Source: a virus (lineage: Duplodnaviria; Caudoviricetes). Taken from it: 51,000 bases of DNA. The stretch is from positions 1 to 51,000 of IMG/VR virus record IMGVR_UViG_3300044648_000011; one strand, given 5' to 3'. This document shows positions 853 to 50,524 of this stretch, in pieces (positions within the stretch are counted from its first letter, which is position 1; the number at the start of each line of letters is the position of its first letter). A model generated the notes under the pieces. That model had not been told where the DNA came from and did no database searches. It saw only the letters and a program-made list of their open reading frames with translations. A program made the translations under genes and the position numbers.

Positions 853-882
853 TTGACTCGTCGCGCCGGAGTTTGATACGGT
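853..882 (+). promoter_or_regulatory. SigA-type early promoter
   Basis: TTGACT-18 nt-TACGGT with TG extended -10, preceded by GGGG as in the tRNA promoter. Confidence 0.6.
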
Positions 883-1065
883 TACACCAGCAACACGAGG
901 TCAGGAACACCGGATCCACTGGGATTCAGGAACTTGCACCCTCTCGCAGCTTCACCAGTCAACTCAATCTAAGGTGCCTGTTCTACGACAACAGGTGTTC
1001 GGTAGTGGAAGCTAAGGTTGGACGAACCAAAGCTACCGAACGAGGAGAATCTGTTCCTCAAACAA

Positions 1066-1142
1066 GGTCCCTGCCCGGGGCTGATCATGTAAGGCCGATG
1101 TAAAAGGCAGTGATCAGAGCGGTTCGACTCCGTTCGGGACCA
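1066..1142 (+). ncRNA. tRNA-like element 1 (acceptor stem and T-arm; long helix instead of anticodon arm)
   Basis: GGTCCC/GGGACC-A; AGCGG-TTCGACT-CCGTT; CTGATCA/TGATCAG helix; no D-stem. Confidence 0.65.
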
Positions 1143-1170
1143 CGCAATAACGTCAACGAAAGGTTCGATC

Positions 1171-1320
1171 ATGGCTAAGCTGGACAAGGCAGTCAAGGCG
1201 TGGAAGTCGAAGGTCAAGAGCGGTAAGGGCAAGCTTACGGCTGCTCAGGAGGTCAAGACAGAGCAGGGTGTCTCGCTTGCAGACCTTGAGGCAGAGTTGA
1301 AGGCACGCGGTCTCATGTAA
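1171..1320 (+). CDS. small basic hypothetical protein (49 aa)
   Basis: MAKLDKAVKAWKSK...ARGLM, GAAAGG RBS; below ORF-track cutoff. Confidence 0.75.
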   Translation: MAKLDKAVKAWKSKVKSGKGKLTAAQEVKTEQGVSLADLEAELKARGLM

Positions 1321-1376
1321 TTGAGAGGCTTGGAGCAGAGGCAGGCTACGGCCTGCCTCCCATCCTGGAATCTCAA
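1321..1376 (+). other. long intergenic hairpin with cUACGg tetraloop
   Basis: GAGGCAGGC-TACG-GCCTGCCTC, outer TTGAGA/TCTCAA. Confidence 0.6.
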
Positions 1377-1390
1377 CGAAGGAGAAACGC

Positions 1391-1510
1391 ATGAGTAGGG
1401 GTAAGACACACCGCACACGGTACGGCCAGATTCGTACCATTCGGGTCCGTGGTGGCATCGTAACGCTGGACAAGCACAACAACATCCTCCGTTCGAAGTC
1501 CACCCGCTGA
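1391..1510 (+). CDS. small basic hypothetical protein (39 aa)
   Basis: AAGGAG RBS, MSRGKTHRTRYGQIR... Confidence 0.6.
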   Translation: MSRGKTHRTRYGQIRTIRVRGGIVTLDKHNNILRSKSTR

Positions 1511-1521
1511 AAGGTTTGATC

Positions 1522-1773
1522 ATGTTTACCGAAAACCTCATGGCCTTTGACAAGGTCGTAAAGCACCACAACGGCAAGAACATCCAGGCGTTCCAGGGCG
1601 CGGGCTACGTGATCTTCGATCTCGAGTTCCCCACTCGGGAAGACGGGATGCACTTTGGCTTTGCCGTCAACCAAGCGTGGCGCCACATCGTCACTCGAGT
1701 ACAGTACATCACCACATACGATGATGGTGCCGTGCTCTACACGGTGACGGTCGATCTACCCAGAATCGACTAG
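1522..1773 (+). CDS. hypothetical protein
   Basis: ORF with GAAAGG RBS in operon orientation. Confidence 0.7.
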   Translation: MFTENLMAFDKVVKHHNGKNIQAFQGAGYVIFDLEFPTREDGMHFGFAVNQAWRHIVTRVQYITTYDDGAVLYTVTVDLPRID

Positions 1774-1780
1774 CTAGGAT

Positions 1781-1823
1781 GGGTGCGCGGTTCAGCCGTA
1801 GCCGTTCAATCGGCACGCACTCA
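1781..1823 (+). ncRNA. tRNA-like element 2 (43-nt mini-tRNA, no anticodon arm)
   Basis: GGGTGCG/CGCACTC-A closing helix, CGG-TTCAG-CCG hairpin, GCCG-TTCAAT-CGGC T-like arm. Confidence 0.45.
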
Positions 1824-1916
1824 CGCAGAGGACGTAAAGCGGTACCGCCTAGGGTCATACACTCTAGGGTGTCTACGGGCTGCTAACCCGCTACCTAAAC
1901 TTAGAGAGGCTTGATC

Positions 1917-2489
1917 ATGAGGGCACACATGCTTGCGGTAGTCGTTGCTCTTGGCATCTTGGGTTGGTCCGCAGGTTCGATTGCGGACTACCTGACCAGC
2001 GACGCTAAGCCTGCTCCGGTTGTGCAGGAAGTGGTCAAGCATGAACACAAGCACGATGCGGCGCCTACAGCCGAACAGCTCATCCCGGTAATGCCGTCTG
2101 AGTGCAACGCTAAGGCTCTTGCAGACGTTCAGAGCTACCTAGGCCATGTCGACACCATCACATGGATCTGGGCAGATCTGCCGAGCAAGGTGGCAGGCTA
2201 CGCCTACGCAGGTTCCAACACGATCGCGCTTGACGTTGACCTGGAATGTGGTTGGGTGCCTAGCGTCGTCATGCACGAGTGGATGCACATCGCTACGTAC
2301 GGCACGTACGGTGAGTACCCGGCAGGCAAGCAAGGCGGAGAGCTTATCTCCGAGTTGATAGCAGACTGTGGCTCTGAGACGCTTGGTAACAGGTTTGGCT
2401 ACCAGACCTACACCAACTACGCAAACCGTGCGGGTGGATGCACGGACAATATCAACGTGATGGTTAAGCACATCTTGAACACCTACTGA
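1917..2489 (+). CDS. exported or membrane-anchored zinc metallopeptidase-like protein
   Basis: N-terminal hydrophobic segment; VVMHEWMH (HExxH) with downstream ELIAD. Confidence 0.7.
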   Translation: MRAHMLAVVVALGILGWSAGSIADYLTSDAKPAPVVQEVVKHEHKHDAAPTAEQLIPVMPSECNAKALADVQSYLGHVDTITWIWADLPSKVAGYAYAGSNTIALDVDLECGWVPSVVMHEWMHIATYGTYGEYPAGKQGGELISELIADCGSETLGNRFGYQTYTNYANRAGGCTDNINVMVKHILNTY

Positions 2490-2503
2490 GAGAGGCTAGA
2501 CAC

Positions 2504-3784
2504 ATGCTTAAGAAGCACTCCGAACGCACGGTCAGGAAGCCTTGCCAGAAGTGCGGTAGCCGTAATCTGTACTGGGCTCACGACACCGACCGCGAAACCG
2601 GCGAGTGGTGCGCTCGATGCGACTCGAACGGCAAGTTCACGTTCATTAACCCGGACGGCACACGTCACGACTGCCAGAACAAACACGGTGCCAAGCTCGA
2701 CCCGTTCGGTTTCGACCGGAACAAGAACGGTTTGTACGACGAGGTTAACGACCGGCCCGACGACAAACTTCAGATTGAGGGCAGCAAGACCGAACAGCCC
2801 TACAAGATCCACACCATGCAGGATGGTATCGAGATCCCCAAGCCCGGCCCCCGAGTCAAGAAGGATGATGTAAAGGTGAAGACGGACAGCAACCCTGATG
2901 TTCAGGCCGCACTCGGCTTGCTTGCAGAGGCTCTTGGGGGCCCCAAGCTCGATGAGAGCAAGATCGAACAGATGATTCGAGACCAGATCTCGAACGTTGT
3001 CTTCCCGACTCGCACCGTGGTTGAGAAGCTCAACGGGGAGCGTAAGGAACTCGAGGGTTCGACTCACCACAAGCTCGCAGACGTGACCACGGCTCTCATG
3101 GCGGGTGAACACGTGATGATGGTTGGACCGGCCGGAACCGGTAAGTCCACCATCGCAGAGCAGGCCGCAGACGCGCTTAGCCTGCCGTCCTACTCCATTT
3201 CGCTTAGCCCCCAGACGCCCGCATCGCAGCTTCTGGGGTACATGCAGGCGCAAGGCGAGTACGTGCCGAGCTTGTTCCGCAAGGCTTACGAGAACGGTGG
3301 TGTGTTCCACTTCGATGAGATGGACAACGCTCACCCGTCGGTCCTGGCCACGATCAACGCGGCCTTGGCGAACGGGCACATGGCGTTCCCCGATCAGATG
3401 GTGAAGCGCCACGAGAACTTCCGGGCGGTTGCCAGCGCCAACACCTACGGCCGTGGTGCTACTCGCGCCTACGTCGGTCGACAGGCTATCGACGCTGCGA
3501 CGCTCGACCGGTTCTCCATCGAGACCATTGAGGTTGACGAGTCGCTTGAGAACGAGCTGTGCCACTCAATCGACCTCGAAAAGGCTCAGGTCGACCGGGT
3601 CCTGAAGTTCGTGCGCAAGCTCCGTAAGAACGCTGAGACGCACGGTATGACCGTGGTTGTCTCCCCGCGTGCGTCGGTAGGCATGTGCCGTCTCCTGGCC
3701 GCTGGTCGGTCCTGGGAGTCTGCGGTTGAGGCTCGTGTCCGTCGCGGTCTGAGTGACGCTGACTGGAAAAAGCTCAACGGCTAG
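2504..3784 (+). CDS. MoxR/CobS/CbbQ-type AAA+ ATPase with N-terminal Cys-rich (Zn) domain
   Basis: Walker A GPAGTGKS, Walker B FHFDEMD, ASANT, DAATLDRF, SPR; N-terminal CxxC pairs. Confidence 0.9.
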   Translation: MLKKHSERTVRKPCQKCGSRNLYWAHDTDRETGEWCARCDSNGKFTFINPDGTRHDCQNKHGAKLDPFGFDRNKNGLYDEVNDRPDDKLQIEGSKTEQPYKIHTMQDGIEIPKPGPRVKKDDVKVKTDSNPDVQAALGLLAEALGGPKLDESKIEQMIRDQISNVVFPTRTVVEKLNGERKELEGSTHHKLADVTTALMAGEHVMMVGPAGTGKSTIAEQAADALSLPSYSISLSPQTPASQLLGYMQAQGEYVPSLFRKAYENGGVFHFDEMDNAHPSVLATINAALANGHMAFPDQMVKRHENFRAVASANTYGRGATRAYVGRQAIDAATLDRFSIETIEVDESLENELCHSIDLEKAQVDRVLKFVRKLRKNAETHGMTVVVSPRASVGMCRLLAAGRSWESAVEARVRRGLSDADWKKLNG

Positions 3785-3797
3785 AAAGCTTTGGATA

Positions 3798-3875
3798 GGG
3801 CGATAGGCTAGCGGCTATGCCGGTTGGTGGCCTTAGGGTGCACTGACAGACCCCGGTTCGAATCCGGGTCGCCCA
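3798..3875 (+). ncRNA. tRNA-like element 3 (cloverleaf with elongated anticodon arm)
   Basis: GGGCGA/TCGCCC-A; D-arm GGC-TAGCGGCTAT-GCC; GTTGGTG/CACTGAC; CCCGG-TTCGAAT-CCGGG. Confidence 0.75.
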
Positions 3876-3908
3876 CAAGTTAAAATCAATAATGAGAGAG
3901 GCTTGGAT

Positions 3909-4793
3909 ATGCGGATCACACAAGAGGGCAACCACATTCGTCACGACTTCGATTCCATCGCTGAGATAGCGCAGGTTGCGCGTGACTCGAGTGAGCCCGG
4001 TCGTAGTCGTGGCCGGGGTTACGACGGTAAGAAGAGTTGCTATCACGATCTGGACGGGTTCGGCGGTTACGAATTCTTTCACGTTCGCAACCACAAGGAA
4101 CTGAACAACCTTGTCCAGAACGGATGGGAAGAGCACGCCGACAGCACATACCAGGTCGCAGAAGAGACTCTGAAGTCGGTTGCTCGTGAGTACGACATGC
4201 CGTCATTCCAGAGCTATTACGACGTGACCGGGTCAGACGTTGACGTTGACCGGTTCCTGTCTGGTGAGCCTGAGAACATGATCGCTTACCACATGGTGTC
4301 CACTCCTAAGGCTGGACGAGTGATCACGATCGTGTCTAACATCGCTGTGAATGCGATGACGAGTACCAAGAAGATGATCGCCCGGGGTAAGGCTGTAGCC
4401 GCTTTGGTGATGGCCATCGAAAGTCTTGGTCTCCGGACTGAGCTGTTCGTCGAAATGCAGAATGACTGCGGCTACGGATTCAAGAAAGGCAGTTACACCT
4501 TGCGTCAGGTGACCAAGGTCAAGAGTCCTGAAGACACGCTAGACGCATCGCTGATGCTCTTCGGGTTTGCTCATCCCGGGTTCTTCCGTTCGTTGTCTCT
4601 GGGAGCCATGTGGGCGCTTCCCAAGGAGTTGCACGATGACTTTGGGGTTGGCTATGGGCACGGCCACGCCACGAACGACCTGGGTTACGAAGATGCCTAC
4701 CCGGAAGGGACGATTCACATCCCGTCGTCACTGGACATCGACAACCCGCGTGGATTCGTGGTTGAGCATCTTACAGGCTTGGGGATCATCTGA
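3909..4793 (+). CDS. vWA-like partner of the AAA+ ATPase (degenerate MIDAS)
   Basis: GSDVDVDRFLSGEPENM followed by strand-helix VITIVSNIAVN...GKAVAALV; adjacent to MoxR-type ATPase. Confidence 0.6.
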   Translation: MRITQEGNHIRHDFDSIAEIAQVARDSSEPGRSRGRGYDGKKSCYHDLDGFGGYEFFHVRNHKELNNLVQNGWEEHADSTYQVAEETLKSVAREYDMPSFQSYYDVTGSDVDVDRFLSGEPENMIAYHMVSTPKAGRVITIVSNIAVNAMTSTKKMIARGKAVAALVMAIESLGLRTELFVEMQNDCGYGFKKGSYTLRQVTKVKSPEDTLDASLMLFGFAHPGFFRSLSLGAMWALPKELHDDFGVGYGHGHATNDLGYEDAYPEGTIHIPSSLDIDNPRGFVVEHLTGLGII

Positions 4794-4794
4794 A

Positions 4795-5046
4795 ATGAAA
4801 TACACATGCGATGATGTAGTTGTTCTAGATACAACAGTAGAAGATCATGAAAGTGCTCTTCTCATCGAGATTCGTGAGCGATTCTTTGTTGTATCAGTCG
4901 CACACCGATTCGGAAATTGTTACGAAACGTGCGTATACAGATCCGACCCCGACGGTTGTATCGACGATTGGGGCGAAGTTGTCTGCGTACCCGGAATCGA
5001 TCATTACGAAGCAATTGAATGGCTGTTAGAAGAGTTGAATACCTAA
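4795..5046 (+). CDS. hypothetical protein
   Basis: ATG just after upstream stop; YETCVY motif. Confidence 0.7.
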   Translation: MKYTCDDVVVLDTTVEDHESALLIEIRERFFVVSVAHRFGNCYETCVYRSDPDGCIDDWGEVVCVPGIDHYEAIEWLLEELNT

Positions 5047-5235
5047 TACTGAATGGGAACCTAGTGCGTAAACGGATAGGGAGCGCACCGTGCCGCAGGT
5101 GAGGGTTTAGGCGGATTGAATGTGAGACACGGGTATGGTGGTTGTGGAGAGCTTAGGGGATGCGTGTCGCTACCTTAGGTTCAGTGAAGCCCTAGCGGTA
5201 GGAGTCACCACGGAATCTGTGCATTATGTAAGATC

Positions 5236-5308
5236 GGGTGTGTAGCTCAGCGGCAGAGTGCGCCGGTTAGGGCGCGGGTCGAGGGTTCGAGTCCCTCCAC
5301 ATCCACCA
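5236..5308 (+). tRNA. non-canonical tRNA / tRNA-like element 4 (Ala identity, 6-nt anticodon loop, encoded CCA)
   Basis: GGGTGTG/CACATCC-ACCA with G3:U70; canonical D and T arms; GCGCC-GGTTAG-GGCGC. Confidence 0.8.
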
Positions 5309-5401
5309 GGACAGCAAGGTGCAACCTTGACTAATAGACTCGCAACCTATTGGTTCCTGAGTAACCATGGTCGCCGCTGGCGCGTGTGAAAGGGCTGTCC
5401 G
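5309..5401 (+). ncRNA. candidate four-way-junction RNA abutting the CCA of element 4
   Basis: GGACAGC/GCTGTCC closing helix enclosing three hairpins. Confidence 0.5.
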
Positions 5402-5438
5402 TCAAACTACAGATTTGGAATAAATAGAAGGGGTTGAT

Positions 5439-5633
5439 ATGGCAGACCGATTCAAAGTGGTGTGGAATGGCTCGACCAAAAAGTGGGGAGTTTGGGACAA
5501 GAATAAGGGGGCTTACGCATTCGGAACCGAGCAACTGACGGACGGTCCCAAGCATAAGAAGAGGCTACAGAAGCAAGCCGATGACATGAATAGTGAATGG
5601 GAACGCATCAAGCGAGAGAAGAAAGGCAAGTAA
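5439..5633 (+). CDS. hypothetical protein
   Basis: ORF with AAGGGG RBS. Confidence 0.75.
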   Translation: MADRFKVVWNGSTKKWGVWDKNKGAYAFGTEQLTDGPKHKKRLQKQADDMNSEWERIKREKKGK

Positions 5634-5735
5634 CCGGGCTGAGTCTGTCGGAGAGCGGTTGAAACACCCTCTCCGGTAGAGTCTACCCGGCAACGTGCTT
5701 AAGACGCTTAGAAACGAAATGAGAGGCAGGAAAGC

Positions 5736-9287: not shown

Positions 9288-9674
9288 ATGAGCGACGATA
9301 ACAAGACGGTGCACGCTGACATCATCCTGACTCTCAAGGGTGGTCCGTACGACAAGACTCCGTTCATGGAGATGATCCATCACGGGAACGTGTCGGGCGA
9401 CGAGACTTCAGTTGACAGGCTGCGGCAGATCTCTTCCCTGCTGTTCGAGGCGGCATGGCTGATGGAAGACCAGGCCAACAAGTTCTCGGAATACGAAAGT
9501 CTTCGTGTCTTCGAGGACACGTCAGGCAACCAGTGGTTTGAGGTGAAGACAGACGTGTTCTACTGCGCTTCTGACCTCGAAGAGGCTCAGAGTCTGTTCG
9601 TGGCTGGTGCGCCCAACACCACCGAAAAGGCTTTGCGTGCGGTGAATGGCGATAAGCTGAAGGAGGTCAAGTGA
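9288..9674 (+). CDS. hypothetical protein
   Basis: ORF with RBS. Confidence 0.7.
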   Translation: MSDDNKTVHADIILTLKGGPYDKTPFMEMIHHGNVSGDETSVDRLRQISSLLFEAAWLMEDQANKFSEYESLRVFEDTSGNQWFEVKTDVFYCASDLEEAQSLFVAGAPNTTEKALRAVNGDKLKEVK

Positions 9675-13431: not shown

Positions 13432-13606
13432 GATGGAAGCTAAGGATTTCCTGTGGACTTTAGTTTTAGTCCTGCTGTTTATCGGACTGACAGGAGGGTT
13501 CGAATGAAGGTCTGGAAATACAGCTTGTGGACAGCTACACTATTCGTAGTATCGTGGGTCATTTGTCTCGTGTCTGCGCTAGTTGCTGGAAAGGGAGGCT
13601 TGAACA

Positions 13607-13792
13607 ATGCCAAACATGTTTTTTCGAGTGAAACCACGAATTACGAAGTGTCGTTCCACTAATAAATGGATCTTGAATTATTCAGGTCGGCAGCACATCT
13701 GCGGACGCAATTACTCGATGGACGTTGGGTTCACTAGGTGGGAAAATGCAATGATGGAAGCTGTCCTGTATTGTAAAGAGAGGTATGGATGA
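13607..13792 (+). CDS. hypothetical protein
   Basis: GGAGG RBS; ATGA overlap with next gene. Confidence 0.55.
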   Translation: MPNMFFRVKPRITKCRSTNKWILNYSGRQHICGRNYSMDVGFTRWENAMMEAVLYCKERYG

Positions 13793-42605: not shown

Positions 42606-44020
42606 TCGTCACGTCCCTCCGGTAGTTGAGTTCTTCCTGTTACGGGAGGTCCGTACAGCTCTGCTAGCCTGCCACGCGGACTGTTCTTATCCATCTTCTC
42701 CATCTCTTCACGTTCACCAATGGAGAAGTTGAGCTTGATTCGAGCCATCTCGACAGGGATAACAGCGCGTCCGTCAGGAGTGATAGCCGTAGCTAGCTTA
42801 ACTACCGCGTCAGCCATTGCAGCAAACGTCGGAGTGGCCGGGTTACGCCATACCGTTTCCATTCGGAATGCGTCTGTAGGAATCGTTCCGTCCATTACCT
42901 TAAGGGCAATGCGCATTACCATTTCCCACGCTTCGCCGAACATTCGACACTTGCGTTCAGCCTTTTTGACTAGTCGATCTTCGCTGGCACGAATAGCGTC
43001 AGCAGAAGCCGGATTGTCAGACGAGAAGCTGAAGTACTGGGGAGGGAGACCGGTGTAACCCGACGCTTCCTTACGAAGCATCTCCATTCCTTCACCGAAG
43101 TTACGAAGTTCAGCCGCAGCAAACTGCGAGATCTTACCGTCTGGATCTTCGAAAGCTAGAAGATTAGCAATGTAAGCTTCCCACGAAGATTCTCCGGTTT
43201 GACCCATGATCTCGGCACGATCCACACCAAAGATAACTCGCTGTGGAATGGCCATCAGCTCAGCAGTAGCCTGCATATTCATCATGAGGCGGGACGCCGC
43301 GTCGCTAACACTTCGTAGTTCTGGCTTGATCTCGGAGCAACCATCCTGCTGTTCAATGCGTTCCTTATTAAGGATCGGAACCACAGGGACAATGCCCAGA
43401 TTATGATCTACTCGCCATTCTTCAATCCACCCGTTGTTGTTTCCAACACGGTTACTTTCTACGTAACCAATGGTAGAATTAGGAAGATAAAGAGTGATCT
43501 TTCGAACCTTGACTGTGGTAACACCAACAGGAACGTTGTAAACACGAATAGCTCGAGTAACTCGCCCCGATACCGGATCAACTTCAGCATACATTGATCG
43601 AGGAGACTCAACCTTGATCACCGGAGTGGTCGGATCCATCAAAGGATCGTTAGGATTAGGGGCCGCGATCGTCACATAAGCCCGGCCATGAACCAAAGCT
43701 TCGGTGTGAGCCAGCCCGGACTCGACGTCCATACGGTTAGCCTGCCACCACTGCCACAGTCGGTCATCCGCCTTGGACTTACCGGCTAGAATGAACCCTT
43801 CGATGTCTAGACGCTCTTCAAGGCTGCCTAGATACGTACGGGACCACCCAATTTGAGCTAGAAGATGCTTCATCGCGGGTGGAACGGCTAGACCAACCGC
43901 CTTTGGGCGATACGTGCCGTTGTAATACGCGTTATTGACCTTAAGCTCGCTTGCGTCCCTTCCAAACTTGCCTAGAAGGTATTCGATCTGCTCGGCATTA
44001 CTCTGGACAGGTGCTGTCAT
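42602..44020 (-). CDS. portal protein
   Basis: ERLDIEGF, HGRAY, SDNPASADAI, WRNP.TPT. Confidence 0.93.
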   Translation of the reverse strand: MTAPVQSNAEQIEYLLGKFGRDASELKVNNAYYNGTYRPKAVGLAVPPAMKHLLAQIGWSRTYLGSLEERLDIEGFILAGKSKADDRLWQWWQANRMDVESGLAHTEALVHGRAYVTIAAPNPNDPLMDPTTPVIKVESPRSMYAEVDPVSGRVTRAIRVYNVPVGVTTVKVRKITLYLPNSTIGYVESNRVGNNNGWIEEWRVDHNLGIVPVVPILNKERIEQQDGCSEIKPELRSVSDAASRLMMNMQATAELMAIPQRVIFGVDRAEIMGQTGESSWEAYIANLLAFEDPDGKISQFAAAELRNFGEGMEMLRKEASGYTGLPPQYFSFSSDNPASADAIRASEDRLVKKAERKCRMFGEAWEMVMRIALKVMDGTIPTDAFRMETVWRNPATPTFAAMADAVVKLATAITPDGRAVIPVEMARIKLNFSIGEREEMEKMDKNSPRGRLAELYGPPVTGRTQLPEGRDE

Positions 44021-45705
44021 CGGAATACGGCCACCTTTCCAGTGCGATTCTTCTTGTTCATAAGGTACTCCTGCCTTCCAGCGAAGGCGAGGACTGCGCA
44101 AACAGCCGCATCGATCTTGCGTGAACTGTCTTTGCTCGCCTTACGAATACTGATTGCGTCGTAAGTGGTTGGGTTTCTATGTGCATTCAAGACGTGCTGC
44201 CTCAGAATCGCCGATCCATTATGAGAAACAGCTCCTTCAAGTACAGCATCGTTAAGCTTTTCACAGTCAAGTGCAAATCGCTTAGTCTGACCACGCATAT
44301 CGAATGCAATCAGGTTGTTCGGAGATGCCTTAACCTTAAGCTTCTTCTTATACTGCCTGCTCCAGGCGTCTACATACGATTCGAACTCCTTGACATCCGC
44401 CCGGAATGCCACTACGTTGAATCGAGAGAAGACCCAATGAACAGTAGCGTCGACATCTTCTCGCGGGATTTCACCGCCGTACTTCTCGGGATCCCACACC
44501 TTGATCGGGACAAGAAGACCGTCATCGATACGACATGCCACTAGGGCCGTGAAGTCGCCGGACTTTGATCCGTCGAATCCAAGGCTGATCGTGTCGCCAG
44601 GTTCTAGCGTGACATCCTTAAGAATACGATCCCACTCGTGAGGGGCGATCCAAGCATCCTCAGCCGCGTTAATGTGGTTGAGGAACTTACGTCGAGACTC
44701 TGAGATGGGGTTGTTGATGTCTAGGATCGATCCTACGATGGTATCGATGTCTAGCCAGTATGCATCCCCTCGAGCGGTCGTCAGACCGTCCTTGAGCATC
44801 TTGAGGCCCAACTCAAAGCCTTCTGGGTCCACGTCCTCGGATGGGATCTCCGAAACTGGAGTTTCAGCCGGAGCCTCGAGCGCATCATAAAGAATACCTG
44901 TATCTACAGCGCCCTTAGTCTGCACCGCGATGTAGGAATCCCACATGCGCTCGCCGATGGAGTTTCGTCCTGGGACGTGCGCATTGCAGATAGCCAGGTA
45001 ACGAGCCACACCCATGCGAGACTTCGTGATGTTACCTTCAACGACGCCGTACATAGCGTGACCATCGTTAGTTTCGATCCACTCCTGGATTTCGTTAAGG
45101 ATTACGAATGTGGGACGACCACCTTCCAGAGTTGCTGGAGAGGAGGTTACGCCTTCGATTAGCCCGCCCGAACCATCAGTAGAGTGGATAATAGTCTTAT
45201 TAATATCAAGCTTAAATTCTTCCTTAAGCTTAGGGCTAACCATGCTAGGGAAAAGCTTAAGCGTGTTACCCGTCTGAGTCTGCGATACCGCAGCAATCTG
45301 AATCCACGGAGCCTTTACACGCTTCCCAACGGGCCGAAGACCTTCCCAGTGACTGAACCGAGCAGGGCCACATAGTTCGACGAGTGCCAGCGCGGCACAC
45401 ATCGGGTCCTTACCCCACCCCTTCATTCGCCTTAGCACACCATTACGGTACGCAAAACGGCCCAGCTCGTCTACGGCATACCACCATAGAATGAACCGGG
45501 CCTGTTCTGAAGTTGGAATGAATGGGTCATCGTCATTATCTCCGCCTGGAGACCGTACATACTCGGCTAGCCAGTCTAAAATCCCCCAACCTAGACTCGC
45601 CTTGGGAAGATGCCAGCGTCCGTCTCGACGACGACGCCATGTAGGGCCTATTACGTGCGCGGGTGCAGGCTTAAGGTCCGATAGGCGGACCAGGGTGTCC
45701 ACCAT
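44017..45705 (-). CDS. terL: terminase large subunit
   Basis: RRMKGWGKDP, AAVSQTQT, LGFDGS...D.T, RKIDAAV. Confidence 0.95.
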   Translation of the reverse strand: MVDTLVRLSDLKPAPAHVIGPTWRRRRDGRWHLPKASLGWGILDWLAEYVRSPGGDNDDDPFIPTSEQARFILWWYAVDELGRFAYRNGVLRRMKGWGKDPMCAALALVELCGPARFSHWEGLRPVGKRVKAPWIQIAAVSQTQTGNTLKLFPSMVSPKLKEEFKLDINKTIIHSTDGSGGLIEGVTSSPATLEGGRPTFVILNEIQEWIETNDGHAMYGVVEGNITKSRMGVARYLAICNAHVPGRNSIGERMWDSYIAVQTKGAVDTGILYDALEAPAETPVSEIPSEDVDPEGFELGLKMLKDGLTTARGDAYWLDIDTIVGSILDINNPISESRRKFLNHINAAEDAWIAPHEWDRILKDVTLEPGDTISLGFDGSKSGDFTALVACRIDDGLLVPIKVWDPEKYGGEIPREDVDATVHWVFSRFNVVAFRADVKEFESYVDAWSRQYKKKLKVKASPNNLIAFDMRGQTKRFALDCEKLNDAVLEGAVSHNGSAILRQHVLNAHRNPTTYDAISIRKASKDSSRKIDAAVCAVLAFAGRQEYLMNKKNRTGKVAVFR

Positions 45706-45721: not shown

Positions 45722-45880
45722 TTATTGGATTTTCCTCTTCTTTAAGATCTTGTTTTCTTGGGATTGCATACACACTGAACAGTATAAAGTTTGGAAAGTG
45801 ACCATGTAGTCACCGACTTTGGCTGTTTTCTGCATCCCTTTGGTTTTCTTATTGCACTTATGCTTGGGAATCTCGCTCAC
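45722..45880 (-). CDS. small Cys-containing basic protein
   Basis: GTG after AAGGGG; HKC...CSVC. Confidence 0.55.
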   Translation of the reverse strand: MSEIPKHKCNKKTKGMQKTAKVGDYMVTFQTLYCSVCMQSQENKILKKRKIQ

Positions 45881-45931
45881 TGTCAACCCCTTCTCGTTGG
45901 TGATGACAGCATACCACACTTCGTGTCTATG

Positions 45932-46003
45932 TGCACCTGGCAGGACTCGAACCTGCGTCTCCGACTTAAGAGGACGGAGCTAAACCATCTCAGCTACAAG
46001 TGC
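45932..46003 (-). tRNA. tRNA-Lys(CUU)
   Basis: cloverleaf, loop CT-CTT-AA. Confidence 0.9.
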
Positions 46004-46004
46004 G

Positions 46005-46079
46005 TAGGTCTGGAAGGATTTGAACCTTCGGTCTCTTCGTTATCAGCGAAGTGCTTTTACCGGACTAAGCTACAAACCT
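46005..46079 (-). tRNA. tRNA-Ile(GAU)
   Basis: cloverleaf, loop CT-GAT-AA. Confidence 0.92.
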
Positions 46080-46080
46080 A

Positions 46081-46157
46081 TGGTGGAGCCTGCGGGGATC
46101 GAACCCGCCGCCTCTTCCTTGCAAGGGAAGCGCTCTTCCTAAATGAGCTAAGACCCC
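46081..46157 (-). tRNA. tRNA-Ala(UGC)
   Basis: G3:U70, loop CT-TGC-AA, CCA encoded. Confidence 0.93.
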
Positions 46158-46159
46158 GG

Positions 46160-46230
46160 AGCCTCTGGTAGGAATCGAACCCACGTCACCTGTTTACAAG
46201 ACAGGAGCTAAGCCACTCAGCTACAAAGGC
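46160..46230 (-). tRNA. tRNA-Thr(UGU)
   Basis: loop CT-TGT-AA. Confidence 0.92.
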
Positions 46231-46234
46231 AATG

Positions 46235-46306
46235 CTGCCCATCAAGGATTCGAACCTCAAACAATTGGTTCAGAGCCAACCGTGTTGCCAATTACACCAA
46301 TGGGCA
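46235..46306 (-). tRNA. tRNA-Gln(CUG)
   Basis: U1-A72, loop CT-CTG-AA. Confidence 0.92.
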
Positions 46307-46364
46307 TTACGAGCCAGCCCCGGTCAATGGAAATTCCAAAGGCACTGAGGCAGACTGGCTCTCG

Positions 46365-46437
46365 ACCCCCTGACAGGACTCGAACCTGCACGTGAACGCT
46401 TAGAAGGCGTCTGATCTTCCAATTGAACTACAAGGGG
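46365..46437 (-). tRNA. tRNA-Arg(UCU)
   Basis: loop CT-TCT-AA. Confidence 0.88.
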
Positions 46438-46438
46438 A

Positions 46439-46523
46439 TGGCAGCGGATAAAGGTATTGATCCCTCGAGTGTAACCCCGGCCTGGTTTTCAAGACCAGTT
46501 TGTGCACCTGCACGCTATCCGCT
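46439..46523 (-). tRNA. tRNA-Ser(UGA), atypical D-arm and T-loop
   Basis: CTGGT-CTTGAAA-ACCAG, long variable arm, G73-CCA. Confidence 0.75.
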
Positions 46524-46527
46524 CTAG

Positions 46528-46600
46528 CACCCCTAACAGGATTCGAACCTGCGACAACCCACGTTCGTAGCGTGGCGCTCTTCCACTGAGCTATAGGGGA
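46528..46600 (-). tRNA. tRNA-Arg(ACG)
   Basis: loop CT-ACG-AA. Confidence 0.9.
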
Positions 46601-46668
46601 TTGTGTCGGAGTTCAGCACCCACCCTCATGCCCTCAACGGACAATCGTGGTACCCGACTCGGGTTCTC

Positions 46669-46739
46669 GTCCTGCCGGGAGGGATCGAACCTCCTACAGT
46701 AGCGGTTTACAGCCGCGCTGCTCTCCAAGAGCGTCAGGA
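46669..46739 (-). tRNA. tRNA-Tyr(GUA), atypical
   Basis: GCGG-CTGTAAA-CCGC; canonical T-arm; irregular acceptor/D junction. Confidence 0.7.
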
Positions 46740-46760
46740 TGGGTCTTTCGACCCTATGGA

Positions 46761-46976
46761 CTAGAATACATCTTCTGGCTTGGCAATAGCACGTACAAAG
46801 AACATAAAGCCCTCTTGCAGATGCGTCTTGGCTAGAGCCATCGAACGCTTGTCGATATCGTCAAACTGAGCAAATTCTCGCCATAGTTGACCGACCTGCT
46901 TCTCCATGTCCTTGACACGATTCATGTCGGCTACATCATCTTCGCTTAGTTCGCGATAACCCTTAACGTCAGGCAT
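46761..46976 (-). CDS. acb2: Acb2-family cyclic-oligonucleotide sponge (anti-CBASS; T4 Vs.4-like)
   Basis: KGYRELS..D...MNRVK...R..ALAKT.LQ.GFM..VRAIA.P..F matches the Acb2 signature; start at ATG 46976. Confidence 0.85.
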   Translation of the reverse strand: MPDVKGYRELSEDDVADMNRVKDMEKQVGQLWREFAQFDDIDKRSMALAKTHLQEGFMFFVRAIAKPEDVF

Positions 46977-47008
46977 CCTCGACCTTTCGTAGTTTATAAT
47001 ACCTTGCG

Positions 47009-47080
47009 TGGAATCTACAGGGTTCGAACCTATGCGCACCGGGCTTCAACCGGTTGCTCTACCCACTGAGCTAAGATTCC
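47009..47080 (-). tRNA. tRNA-Phe(GAA)
   Basis: loop TT-GAA-GC. Confidence 0.9.
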
Positions 47081-47152
47081 ATAAGCAGACACCGCATTCG
47101 ATCCTAAATGCTCATTTAATCAAGGCTCGGAACGTCCCTGAAGTGCCTTACG

Positions 47153-47236
47153 AGGAAGATAAAGGAATCGAACCCTTAGGCTTTCACCTAGTACTAGCTT
47201 AGCACGCTAGTTGCCAACCAATAGGCACTATCTTCC
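47153..47236 (-). tRNA. tRNA-Ser(GCU)
   Basis: loop GT-GCT-AA, long variable arm. Confidence 0.85.
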
Positions 47237-47238
47237 GG

Positions 47239-47312
47239 GGTGACTGGAGGGTATCGCACCCTCTTCCATCGGATTCACAGTCCAATAAACTCACTTTTCG
47301 TATCTCAGTCAC
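47239..47312 (-). tRNA. tRNA-His(GUG), weak D-arm
   Basis: GTGACTG/CAGTCAC-C73, loop CT-GTG-AA; no encoded G-1. Confidence 0.72.
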
Positions 47313-47314
47313 AG

Positions 47315-47386
47315 TCCCTTCACAAGGATTCGAACCTTGGACCCGCTGCTTGTAGGGCAGCCGCTCTTCCGCTGAGCTATAAAGGG
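47315..47386 (-). tRNA. tRNA-Val(UAC)
   Basis: loop CC-TAC-AA (C33). Confidence 0.88.
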
Positions 47387-47387
47387 G

Positions 47388-47460
47388 TAGCTCTCCCGGG
47401 ATTCGAACCCGGACTGAACAGTTTCTAAGACTGTTGCCTCTCCCGTTGGGCTAGAGAGCC
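47388..47460 (-). tRNA. tRNA-Leu(UAG), short variable region
   Basis: loop CT-TAG-AA. Confidence 0.88.
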
Positions 47461-47501
47461 ATATGGATTACAGGCACTTTCATGTCAGCCTGCTTATCCA
47501 G

Positions 47502-47572
47502 CACCGATAGAAGGATTCGAACCTTCGCGGACCGGTTTTGGAGACCAGCCGACACATCCAGCGCTTATCGAT
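47502..47572 (-). tRNA. tRNA-Trp(CCA)
   Basis: loop CT-CCA-AA, G73; weak D-arm. Confidence 0.8.
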
Positions 47573-47608
47573 AAGAGGAGTCAACATTGCCTAGGATATC
47601 AACTCCAG

Positions 47609-47682
47609 TAGCGGGAGTGAGATTTGAACTCACGACCTTAGGCTTATGAGGCCCACGCGCTAGCCTACTGCGCCATCCCGCT
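47609..47682 (-). tRNA. tRNA-Met(CAU)
   Basis: loop CT-CAT-AA; initiator vs elongator unclear. Confidence 0.9.
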
Positions 47683-47729
47683 AGAGTATCCAGGTGGTAG
47701 CGAGGTACCTGGATACTGGTCTGTTATGC

Positions 47730-47861
47730 TCACGGTTGTCCGTACAACTCGCGATACATCTCCCGAACCTCGTGTCGGTCATGTCCTTCTGCGTTCGGCA
47801 CATGCGGCCTGCGCGATTGATCAGCCAACCTGTCCGCGTATCGTTCAACTTCAGTAAGCAT
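47730..47861 (-). CDS. small hypothetical protein (43 aa)
   Basis: GAGAGG RBS, MLTEVERYADRL... Confidence 0.5.
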   Translation of the reverse strand: MLTEVERYADRLADQSRRPHVPNAEGHDRHEVREMYRELYGQP

Positions 47862-47871
47862 ATCTAACCTC

Positions 47872-48309
47872 TCAACTCGTGCTTAGCAGATCATCCGTCA
47901 GTTCGGGCAATGTATCCGTGATGTTGTTCATTACTCGATCAGCGTCCGTTGCGTACATCCAACCACCGTAATACCCATTCGAGTCGTTCCGGAAACTAAA
48001 GACCGAAGTCTGTTCACCCCACATGTCCGATTCAGTGAAGATTTGGAATCCGTAGCAACGGGTTACGTCGTAGTCGTTTTTCTCGTCTTCGCCGAGATCT
48101 ACTTCTTTGACCGAAATTACCGGTCCGTTCTCCAAGAGCTTCTTGACTCCGTGGAAATCATAAAAGTAGCTGTGCGAGCAACAGTCACCTTCGACTGTGA
48201 AGGCAAAACGTCCTTCGTCCGTCTCGAAGACCAAGTATTCGTCGTTCATAAAGACACGCTCGATGACCTTGCCAACCAAATTCCCTAGGCCGTTGTCTGA
48301 ACTCCACAT
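47872..48309 (-). CDS. conserved phage hypothetical protein
   Basis: GDCCS...NDSNGYYGGW motif; GAGGAG RBS. Confidence 0.8.
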   Translation of the reverse strand: MWSSDNGLGNLVGKVIERVFMNDEYLVFETDEGRFAFTVEGDCCSHSYFYDFHGVKKLLENGPVISVKEVDLGEDEKNDYDVTRCYGFQIFTESDMWGEQTSVFSFRNDSNGYYGGWMYATDADRVMNNITDTLPELTDDLLSTS

Positions 48310-48358
48310 GATCTTCTCTCCTCTCTACGTTAGAGGCAGCAGCGTACCACCGCCCACG

Positions 48359-48430
48359 CGCACCGAACGGGATTCGAACCCGCGTCTCCCAAGTTGACAA
48401 CCTGGTGCTCTACCGCTGAGCTATCCGTGC
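48359..48430 (-). tRNA. tRNA-Asp(GUC)
   Basis: loop TT-GTC-AA, G73. Confidence 0.9.
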
Positions 48431-48434
48431 TTGA

Positions 48435-48538
48435 TAAGACCATACTACACGACGACCCGACTTGTGCACAAGCCTCTCGCGCCCCTTCCCCACATCCGTA
48501 TTCACCCTAAAGGATGACAACAACCTCGTATGGTCTTA
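48435..48538 (-). ncRNA. candidate structured RNA between tRNA-Asn and tRNA-Asp
   Basis: perfect 11-bp closing helix TAAGACCATAC/GTATGGTCTTA. Confidence 0.45.
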
Positions 48539-48540
48539 CG

Positions 48541-48614
48541 CTGGCTAGACAGGACTCGAACCTGTAACAACCGGGTTAACAGCCCGGCTCCCCTGCCGAT
48601 GGGGACTCTAACCA
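48541..48614 (-). tRNA. tRNA-Asn(GUU)
   Basis: loop CT-GTT-AA, U1-A72, G73. Confidence 0.88.
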
Positions 48615-48689
48615 TGAAGGTCAGCCGTATTAGGGTCTGACCCTGTCGACTCCTTCCACAAGAAGTTAATCTTGCACAGGTGGCCGTCG

Positions 48690-48760
48690 TCAGGCCACGA
48701 GGAATTGAACCTCGTCCGCTTCATTCCAAATGAACCATGCAACCACTACACCATGGCCTG
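48690..48760 (-). tRNA. tRNA-Pro(UGG)
   Basis: C1-G72, loop TT-TGG-AA. Confidence 0.88.
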
Positions 48761-48917
48761 GCAACGCTAGTCGCGGTGGTCGATCACACCATCCCACTAG
48801 CTCTGGGCACCTTGAGAATTCAAGTCTCGTCTTACGTCCTTAGGATGCACGCCCTAAGGAACCCAGCTAAAGCTAGTCACAGTTTCACTGCCGTGAGGCA
48901 GGCTTTCTGCAACCGCG

Positions 48918-48989
48918 AGCGTTATACAGGATTCGAACCTGCTCCGTCTGGTTGGAAGCCAGACATGCTACCGTTAACACCAATAACGC
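48918..48989 (-). tRNA. tRNA-Gly(UCC)
   Basis: loop CT-TCC-AA, U73. Confidence 0.93.
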
Positions 48990-48992
48990 AAG

Positions 48993-49071
48993 GGGCCGGT
49001 CCGGAAGATTCGAACTCCCGATTCTCCCAATTGTGAGGGATTTTCTTCTGCCTGAACAAAGATTACCAGCC
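48993..49071 (-). pseudogene. pseudo-tRNA / tRNA-like element
   Basis: GGCTGGT/ACCGGCC, GGGAG-TTCGAAT-CTTCC; irregular core; TCCC-TCACAATT-GGGA. Confidence 0.65.
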
Positions 49072-49075
49072 TTTG

Positions 49076-49147
49076 TACTCCGTACGGGGATCGAACCCGT
49101 GCTTCCAGGGTGAAAACCTGGCGTGCTTACCATTACACCAACCGAGC
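49076..49147 (-). tRNA. tRNA-Glu(UUC)
   Basis: loop TT-TTC-AC. Confidence 0.9.
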
Positions 49148-50218: not shown

Positions 50219-50524
50219 TCATCGCAGACCGGGGTGTCTCCCAGTCGGTCGTTTTCTTAACATCTTGAGTCTCGCCTTGGCATTATTGCCTTCGCGGGAA
50301 CTTTTCTTAGCATGACATCGCTCACATACAGCTTGCAAATTCGAAAATCGATGATCATCGCCTCTTACTATATGATCTACTTCAGTAGCTTGAATCTGAC
50401 AACCATCATCGATAATTTTACAAGTATACTTATCTCTTTTTAGTATTTTAGGAACAATATAAGTTTCCCAGTCTTTAGGAAGACGTTCCTTCCTAGTAGA
50501 AGTAGACCAAGTCACTATAATCAT
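50219..50524 (-). CDS. HNH endonuclease (packaging-associated)
   Basis: RD.Y.C...C...ATEVDHI...NLQAVC..CH..KS. Confidence 0.92.
   Translation of the reverse strand: MIIVTWSTSTRKERLPKDWETYIVPKILKRDKYTCKIIDDGCQIQATEVDHIVRGDDHRFSNLQAVCERCHAKKSSREGNNAKARLKMLRKRPTGRHPGLR

Follow-up and report, generated by a model that had tools for sequence, protein, structure and literature searches.

The DNA analysed here, referred to throughout as the window, is a whole IMG/VR virus record (IMGVR_UViG_3300044648_000011) of 51,000 bases with a CheckV completeness of 98%, and belongs to an uncultured soil phage related to mycobacteriophage L5. Its early operon contains three clear tRNA-like elements (E1, E3 and E4) and a doubtful one (E2; Table 1). 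E1 and E3, perhaps joined by E2 and, in part, by E4, are proposed to be cis-acting tRNA-like modules that process and stabilize the early polycistronic RNA (estimated probability about 0.55). The coaxial stack of acceptor and T arm, together with an N73-C74 tail, would present the RNA to the host enzymes of tRNA maturation: RNase P on the 5′ side, and the tRNA 3′-end pathway with the CCA-adding enzyme on the 3′ side. None of these enzymes reads the anticodon, which would leave the anticodon arm free to vary. RNA ends would be fixed about 30 nucleotides (nt) upstream of the next start codon and the leader RNA separated from the coding message; the remainder would be a compact, exonuclease-resistant tRNA-shaped cap or a free small RNA, with possible effects on stability and translation. 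RNase P RNA cleaves the tRNA-like domain of Mycobacterium smegmatis YrlA in vitro, and CCA is added to it in vivo (PMC4201824), a precedent showing that actinobacterial enzymes accept such tRNA mimics.

Folds of the four elements

All four elements lie on the plus strand in gaps between open reading frames (ORFs) taken as genes, where the original prediction had placed them. Among the gaps of the first 6 kb, six reach at least 70 nt; the tRNA-like candidates occupy four of them and long hairpins the other two. The acceptor of E1 (GGTCCC(T)/(C)GGGACC) has 6 base pairs (bp) and one U.C mismatch, and its T arm (AGCGG-TTCGACT-CCGTT) has a perfect 5-bp stem. The anticodon arm is replaced by a perfect 7-bp helix (CTGATCA/TGATCAG) with a 23-nt loop. 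The minimum free energy is -32.1 kcal/mol (z -2.5), and the fold is retained when the whole 286-nt leader is folded. E1 ends in A73-C74, 28 nt upstream of the ATG at 1171 that opens the first early ORF. A caveat is that the first 38 nt of E1 also belong to a mechanically called 206-residue ORF with a TTG start (483-1103), for which neither Pfam nor PHROG gave a match.

In E3, acceptor and T stem stack to 11 bp, the loop is TTCGAAT and the A-C end lies 32 nt upstream of an ATG; the minimum free energy fold has an over-long middle arm of 10 bp capped by a UUAG tetraloop. E4 combines a D arm and a T arm with a perfect 7-bp acceptor that contains G3.U70 and is followed by A73 and an encoded CCA, but its anticodon loop has only 6 nt (GGUUAG). 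The T stems of E1, E3 and E4 are all perfect, with a G53-C61 pair and a canonical T loop. E2 is a 7-bp closing stem around two small hairpins, one of which has 4 bp and the 6-nt loop TTCAAT, followed by an A-C end. This would-be T arm does not match any T-arm descriptor applied despite the favorable z of the fold, so that the real acceptor/T-arm stack claimed for all four elements stands for E1, E3 and E4 and stays weak for E2, already suspected to be the weakest member. The arrangement of the t-element and mascRNA kind, an acceptor/T-arm stack inside a longer transcript with a dispensable anticodon region, is seen in E1, E3 and E4 and is doubtful in E2.

A strict descriptor (perfect 5-bp T stem, TTCRANN loop, adjoining 7-bp acceptor with at most one mismatch) finds five sites in positions 1 to 45900 on both strands, against 0.95 ± 0.97 (maximum 3) in 100 dinucleotide shuffles. 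E1, E3 and E4 are three of the five, all intergenic and co-oriented with the operon. The remaining sites (9393-9462 and 13542-13641) are weak, lie inside ORFs and were set aside as chance-like.

None of the four elements has a 5-bp anticodon stem closing a 7-nt loop with U33 and a 3-nt anticodon. Only E4 passes the 29-bit gathering cut-off of the Rfam tRNA model RF00005, and a 4.6-kb Rfam search gave no tRNA-clan match at E ≤ 10 for E1, E2 or E3. ARAGORN reports E4 as "tRNA-???" with a 2-nt "anticodon", as had been expected of a defective tRNA; E3, for which a pseudo call or none was foreseen, is instead called tRNA-Gln(ttg), in a drawing that is itself defective, with an A.A first pair, a mismatched anticodon stem, G33 and a 19-nt variable region left unpaired.

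These calls raise the question of whether E3 and E4 are odd but working tRNAs, E3 a tRNA-Gln(UUG) complementing the Gln(CUG) of the phage's tRNA array and E4 an alanine acceptor with abnormal decoding or a role as a non-translational donor. The array does hold only Gln(ctg), and a related phage (G001, below) offers a parallel with Lys(ttt) in its early arm and Lys(ctt) in its array; E4 shares G3.U70, A73 and CCA with the array tRNA-Ala in addition to passing the Rfam model. The E3 call, however, comes with the faulty drawing and the missing Rfam match, and the 10-bp arm is the minimum free energy fold. A 6-nt anticodon loop is not a known decoding geometry. Working tRNAs are therefore a very doubtful explanation.

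Within the soil metagenome runs in which the phage DNA is present, contigs from four runs on positions 900-5500 cover E1 and E2, with at most two changes and at most one change, respectively, and leave E3 uncovered; these strains are about 97-98% alike and thus have no power for covariation. One soil-run contig matches just the last 33 nt of E4 and then continues into an unrelated tRNA. Across IMG/VR, words from E1 and E3 have no exact match, and a 16-mer from the E4 anticodon arm has 48, none of them (0/48) in a tRNA-like context. Folded as a whole, the 392-nt gap around E4 does no better than its shuffles (z 0.16).

The Pleft leader of Cluster A mycobacteriophages

The closest known system is the 3′ part of the Pleft leader RNA of L5, D29 and StarStuff (PMC5712189): here too the early arm is read inward from one genome end, and a non-coding leader lies between the early promoter and the first small ORF. 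In L5, the transcription start site of Pleft is at 51,672, and the ~500 nt to gene 89 yield the most abundant phage RNA, which is stable and processed to 100-400-nt species with a common 5′ end; about 90% of the transcripts end at 51,140-51,190 (PMC5712189). L5 deletions 51,195-51,619 and 51,195-51,407 could not be purified and deletion 51,407-51,619 could, and the region is toxic to M. smegmatis and, as it seems, also to E. coli (PMC5712189). The abundance, stability, toxicity and essentiality of the Pleft RNA are reported there for L5 and D29 only.

A tRNA-like element lies on the L5 minus strand at ~51,133-51,228; its acceptor is GGGTAG/CTACCC and its T arm TCGGG-TTCGATT-CCCGA, it includes a D-like hairpin as well as extra hairpins, and it ends in A-C. 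It overlaps the mapped region of Pleft 3′ ends, and its 5′ third lies inside both of the unobtainable deletions. The elements of L5 and D29 end ~50 nt before gene 89. Like E1, they combine acceptor, T arm and N73-C74 with a non-tRNA middle just upstream of the first early gene; the Cluster A element differs in that its acceptor has 6 bp, its D-like arm (loop GGAATG) is conserved and it forms additional hairpins. The only Rfam match of the L5 element is a sub-threshold one to tRNA-Sec (22.1 bits, E 1.4).

A blastn search with the L5 element returned 154 phage records, of which 20 were sampled across identity bands and aligned with L5 (alignment A1, 21 sequences). In 21/21 the invariant loop TTCGATT sits on a fully paired stem just upstream of the first early gene, the gene 89 homologue. 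Across three named helices, 98.9% of the alignment cells are paired, compared with 82.1 ± 1.5% in shuffles (none of 500 reaches the observed value), and both sides have changed in 8 of the 16 pairs. The covariation score is 0.379, against 0.100 in shuffles and at most 0.066 in slid controls; the shuffles ignore relatedness; the slid controls preserve it and point the same way. Up to four pair types occur per position of the T stem, Ph8s has a compensated acceptor change, and Adzzy is the single sequence with an unpaired acceptor (two unpaired cells). A blind RNAalifold run recovers the same helices together with a covarying middle hairpin. The covariation that was to be sought in relatives is thus found for the Cluster A leader element; for E1 to E4 themselves no close relative turned up.

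A covariance model of the Cluster A element (R1) gives E3 24.6 bits (E 0.002) and the leader element of another related phage, G003, 23.1 bits. Since it rates a canonical tRNA-Lys (24.2 bits) like E3, R1 appears to detect tRNA top halves generally and is unspecific for homology.

In a strict scan of the L5 and D29 right arms, the leader element is found in both, and the only other finds are one coding-region match lacking an acceptor in D29 and a mini element in the gap between genes 88 and 89 of L5, so that several punctuating elements are not the rule in Cluster A. The L5 mini fold (L028 928-1014, minus strand; L5 ~50,427-50,513) has a 6-bp closing stem, one hairpin and a perfect T arm (GAGGG-TTCGACT-CCCTC), an architecture like that of E2; it is absent from D29, where the gap is shorter. 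The 63-64 region of D29, a reported candidate small RNA (L049 16330-16470, minus strand), folds with a closing stem of ~13 bp (z -2.2). A strict T-arm scan of the 63-64 intergenic RNAs of D29 and L5, both structured, found nothing.

Leader elements and junction hairpins in related phages

Relatives were anchored on the two genes flanking E3, which encode a MoxR-like ATPase (AAA_5) and a DUF7192 protein. Thirteen loci were collected from IMG/VR, metagenomes and GTDB genomes, with ATPases 46-64% identical to that of the window; the collections overlap in part (for example, L012 and L013 match L003 and L002, and L010 resembles L007). Four whole phage records, G001 to G004, were compared.

A leader tRNA-like element with a non-tRNA middle is present in two of these four phages, 28-36 nt before the first early ORF. 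That of G001 (L004 1314-1389) is a cloverleaf-like fold of 76 nt (z -3.6): besides a T arm and a 7-bp acceptor it has two hairpins, and its A-C end lies 28 nt before the ORF. The G003 element (L006 5388-5476) is 89 nt long and ends in A-C ~36 nt before the ORF; both its acceptor and its T arm are perfect, and its middle helix has 7 bp (z -3.8). None of the elements of G001 to G004 has sequence similarity to E1 to E4. The view that the elements are maintained mimics of the tRNA top half, not products of random decay, is supported at least for the E1 class, which recurs at the leader position with a different sequence and covaries in Cluster A.

Two further loci of interest occur in these relatives. 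In G001 (L004 1702-1904, plus strand), a canonical tRNA-Lys(UUU) and, directly behind it, a 126-nt tRNA-like element are found ~200 nt upstream of the ATPase gene; the 126-nt element has a D arm and an encoded CCA, and its anticodon/variable region carries a long insertion. A 78-nt element of G004 (45747-45824, plus strand; L026 6147-6226) is on the early strand, ~6 kb downstream of the ATPase gene, and has the acceptor GGGGCUG/CAGCUCC with G3.U70. Its 5′ strand resembles the tRNA-like domain of transfer-messenger RNA (tmRNA), and it has no mRNA-like part.

At the E3 slot, the spacer between the ATPase and DUF7192 genes forms a long, very stable hairpin with no U tract in all six IMG/VR relatives (z -2.4 to -8.3). 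Together with the hairpins in two other spacers of the window, this makes structured RNA at cistron junctions a conserved feature, of which the tRNA-like folds are one form. The processing and stabilizing role that the original prediction offered finds partial backing here: it fits the L5 counterpart at the end of the Pleft RNA and the hairpins at the E3 slot. Its idea of one dedicated system is not supported, the elements being heterogeneous: one module lies in the leader and another between cistrons, E4 is a near-canonical tRNA of Ala type whose anticodon loop has 6 nt, and E2 is a very small fold of doubtful standing.

The same comparisons bear on whether the elements are functionless remnants of decaying tRNA genes, retained in the early arm by chance. 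E4 departs from a canonical tRNA chiefly in lacking a single base of the loop, a similar short-loop tRNA lacking C74 sits inside the G001 array, and the tRNA-Lys of G001 indicates that tRNA genes do occur in the early arm; moreover, no close relative was found in which conservation of E2, E3 and E4 could be checked. Decay does not, however, predict perfect T stems with G53-C61 and a canonical T loop in E1, E3 and E4, nor middles made of stable new helices (7 and 10 bp) in place of eroded sequence, nor A73-C74 kept in all four elements. The same leader position and architecture in diverged phages, with covariation in Cluster A, likewise speak against it, and decay is judged quite improbable. 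E4 taken singly could as readily be a newly damaged tRNA gene, or an oddity that accepts alanine.

Points that weigh against processing and stabilizing modules

Several observations count against E1 and E3 as cis-acting modules. In the window, both stacks are imperfect, that of E1 by its U.C mismatch and that of E3 with its 11 bp, and a recent one-base loss in a tRNA gene would look like E4. No RNA run is among the sequencing runs listed for the phage. The strict leader element is found neither in G002 and G004 nor in the early arm of the cluster L phage LeBron, and the relatives' hairpins replace E3, so tRNA-likeness is not required at that site. The link between E1 and the Cluster A element is one of architecture and position with no detectable homology, and R1 misses E1. 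For L5, termination is the simplest explanation of the Pleft 3′ end according to the authors (PMC5712189). The read-depth drop at 51,140-51,190 lies inside the L5 element and not at its 5′ edge. As the smaller RNAs also share the 5′ end of Pleft, efficient RNase P cutting at ~51,228 is unsupported. The data fit better with an L5 element kept as a 3′ cap than with efficient RNase P release.

The 3′ tails and the tRNA array

The acceptors end in A-C, as first described: E1, E2 and E3 end A-C and E4 ends A-C-C-A, so that A73-C74 occurs in 4/4 elements. The same rule governs the phage's own tRNA array, which is separate from the elements and lies on the minus strand (Table 1). C74 follows the discriminator in 21/21 descriptor matches of the array, and only tRNA-Ala and the match at 47389-47460 (tRNA-Leu) have C-C-A or C-C-C at this point. 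In G001, C74 is found in 23 of 25 matches; the exceptions are a chance match in a coding region and the short-loop "tRNA-???" of its array. C74, mostly without a full CCA, may be a consistent 3′-end style that reflects the maturation route of the phage tRNAs. No phage-encoded CCA-adding enzyme or RtcB was matched in the genome.

Some array members are unusual in themselves. The window array includes an extra non-canonical tRNA-like fold with the 8-nt loop UCACAAUU (z -1.7), called by neither ARAGORN nor Rfam, and a tRNA-His(GUG)-like gene found by Rfam only (38.3 bits); the two lie at 48996-49074 and 47239-47312, both on the minus strand. A tRNA with an 8-nt anticodon loop and the 4-base "anticodon" tttg occurs in relatives (L007 3483-3559 and L010 3484-3558, minus strand). 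The G001 array has a tRNA at L015 1342-1412 (plus strand) with a 4- to 6-nt loop, a GUUG core and no C74.

Possible trans-acting decoys

The tRNA shapes might also act in trans, as decoys or sponges: once set free, abundant tRNA shapes that lack an anticodon would tie up host factors recognizing the tRNA body or its 3′ end. Candidate targets are tRNA-targeting defense nucleases, nucleotidyltransferase toxins, RNase P, the CCA-adding enzyme, synthetases and EF-Tu, and the outcome would be counter-defense or host shut-off. Such a role can coexist with one in cis. The toxicity and abundance reported for the L5 Pleft RNA (PMC5712189) speak for some effect in trans, and evasion of tRNA-targeting defenses has been proposed for phage tRNAs whose anticodon loops are altered (PMC10264068). 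A G-U-U-R-G loop core is common to E4, the ARAGORN drawing of E3 and the G001 tRNA at 1342-1412; this similarity, however, involves three short loops, and the last of the three, lacking C74, may be a pseudogene. The canonical tRNA-Lys(UUU) in the early region of G001 and the alanine mark G3.U70, shared by E4 and the G004 element at 45747-45824, would also suit decoys. No defense system, target or binding partner was identified, and the literature search found no paper describing a phage tRNA-like decoy. Nor does a decoy model predict plain hairpins at the E3 slot of relatives, and the decoy role is considered rather unlikely.

Relation to known tRNA-like RNAs

Organelles and eukaryotic nuclei are already known to use tRNA-like folds as signals for RNA ends. 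Examples are the t-elements of plant mitochondria (PMC1920247) and mascRNA, a module of MALAT1: both are tRNA-like folds in longer transcripts that direct tRNA-processing enzymes to form mRNA or non-coding RNA ends, with a dispensable anticodon region. Both differ from the elements described here in being eukaryotic, organellar or nuclear, with mapped ends; E1 to E4 belong to a phage operon in an actinobacterial host and are known from sequence alone.

E4 shares G3.U70, A73, CCA and the T arm with the tRNA-like domain of tmRNA (RF00023), but it has 73 nt, D and anticodon arms, and no mRNA-like domain or pseudoknots. Against the RF00023 model it scores 35.1 bits with 312 model positions skipped (cut-off 47 bits), and ARAGORN found no tmRNA. 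YrlA and other Y RNAs are likewise non-decoding tRNA mimics; however, YrlA is permuted, ends at the anticodon-stem position and is encoded beside Ro60/Rsr (PMC4201824), whereas E1 to E4 have open acceptor ends. With no TROVE match in the 51-kb genome either, a Y RNA identity was rejected. The phage tRNAs proposed to evade host tRNA nucleases are phage-borne tRNA shapes with anticodon loops unlike those of the host, but they still decode (PMC10264068); E1 and E2 have no anticodon loop, and that of E4 is too short.

Genome setting of the early arm

Small plus-strand genes occupy 1.1-27 kb of the window and minus-strand structural genes lie beyond, the layout of L5 turned round. The large terminase (44017-45705) is ~64% identical to the terminases of Rhodococcus phage RGL3 and several mycobacteriophages. 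INPHARED yielded no megablast match, and distant blastn gave gene fragments only, with no close relative. No tyrosine or serine recombinase was matched in a search for an integrase or resolvase; an integration scar made of an attP or tRNA fragment was therefore rejected, both acceptor strands also being present.

Table 1. Structured RNAs and other features mapped in the window
Feature	Coordinates	Strand	Basis and remarks
Possible early promoter, TTGACT-18 nt-TACGGT	854..883	+	Read by eye; putative
E1, leader tRNA-like module	1066..1142	+	Fold and descriptor; positional analogues in relatives
Long intercistronic hairpin, no U tract	1321..1376	+	z -5.4
E2, 44-nt three-way junction, weak candidate	1781..1824	+	z -3.9
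E3, intercistronic tRNA-like module	3797..3876	+	Between MoxR-like ATPase gene (2504-3784) and DUF7192 gene (3909-4793)
E4, near-canonical tRNA	5236..5308	+	45.7 bits, Rfam tRNA; in 392-nt gap 5047-5438
Long intercistronic hairpin	5634..5690	+	z -4.6
tRNA array	45931..49147	-	19 ARAGORN calls and a tRNA-His by Rfam only; all encode C74

With the promoter read by eye, E1 would start ~180 nt into the leader; a consensus promoter scan did not list this site. Positions 1-1060 of the window, at the end of the genome, hold no supported gene and several direct repeats, and are possibly an operator or packaging region. Words like TGCAGGTCAG occur there three times, at 113, 470 (inverted) and 572. As a stoperator-like site, TGCAGGTCAG is unconvincing, with 8 matches genome-wide against 3.45 expected, a number reached in 2 of 100 shuffles. 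The MoxR-like AAA_5 ATPase and DUF7192 gene pair (2504-4793, plus strand) heads the early arm, as it also does in prophages of Pseudonocardiaceae (Actinocrispum, Amycolatopsis), in Gordonia phages and in mycobacteriophages including LeBron.

Implications for early regulation in L5-like phages

No paper was found that describes the end of the L5/D29 leader, or punctuation of a phage early operon, as tRNA-like, in a search that left subscription journals and supplements outside. A large survey of viral structured RNAs mentions tRNA-like candidates in general terms only, as far as its available text goes (PMC10690425). The available text of the L5 study uses neither "tRNA-like" nor "secondary structure" (PMC5712189), and a D29 preprint (10.1101/2025.11.21.689395) describes a sharp peak before gene 89 and leaves tRNA unmentioned.

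Processing and stabilizing modules of this type offer a concrete answer, open to testing, on a point unsettled in the literature since 2017, namely how the Pleft 3′ end of L5 and D29 forms, and they indicate which part of the RNA may matter. Cluster A mycobacteriophages, D29 among them, serve widely as genetic tools, which gives their early regulation practical weight. Annotators should bear in mind that a "pseudo-tRNA" called in the early arm of a phage may be a working RNA module. An unlikely but far-reaching prospect is that the tRNA-shaped end is the active part of an abundant, essential and host-toxic leader RNA, which would mimic the tRNA top half with its N73-C74 tail and in this way flood the host machinery for tRNA 5′ and 3′ ends or soak up defense toxins that act on acceptor ends. 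Such an active part would be conserved by architecture across L5-like actinophages, with E3, E4 and perhaps E2 adding dose, and, if real, it would be an RNA-only weapon of host take-over or anti-defense.

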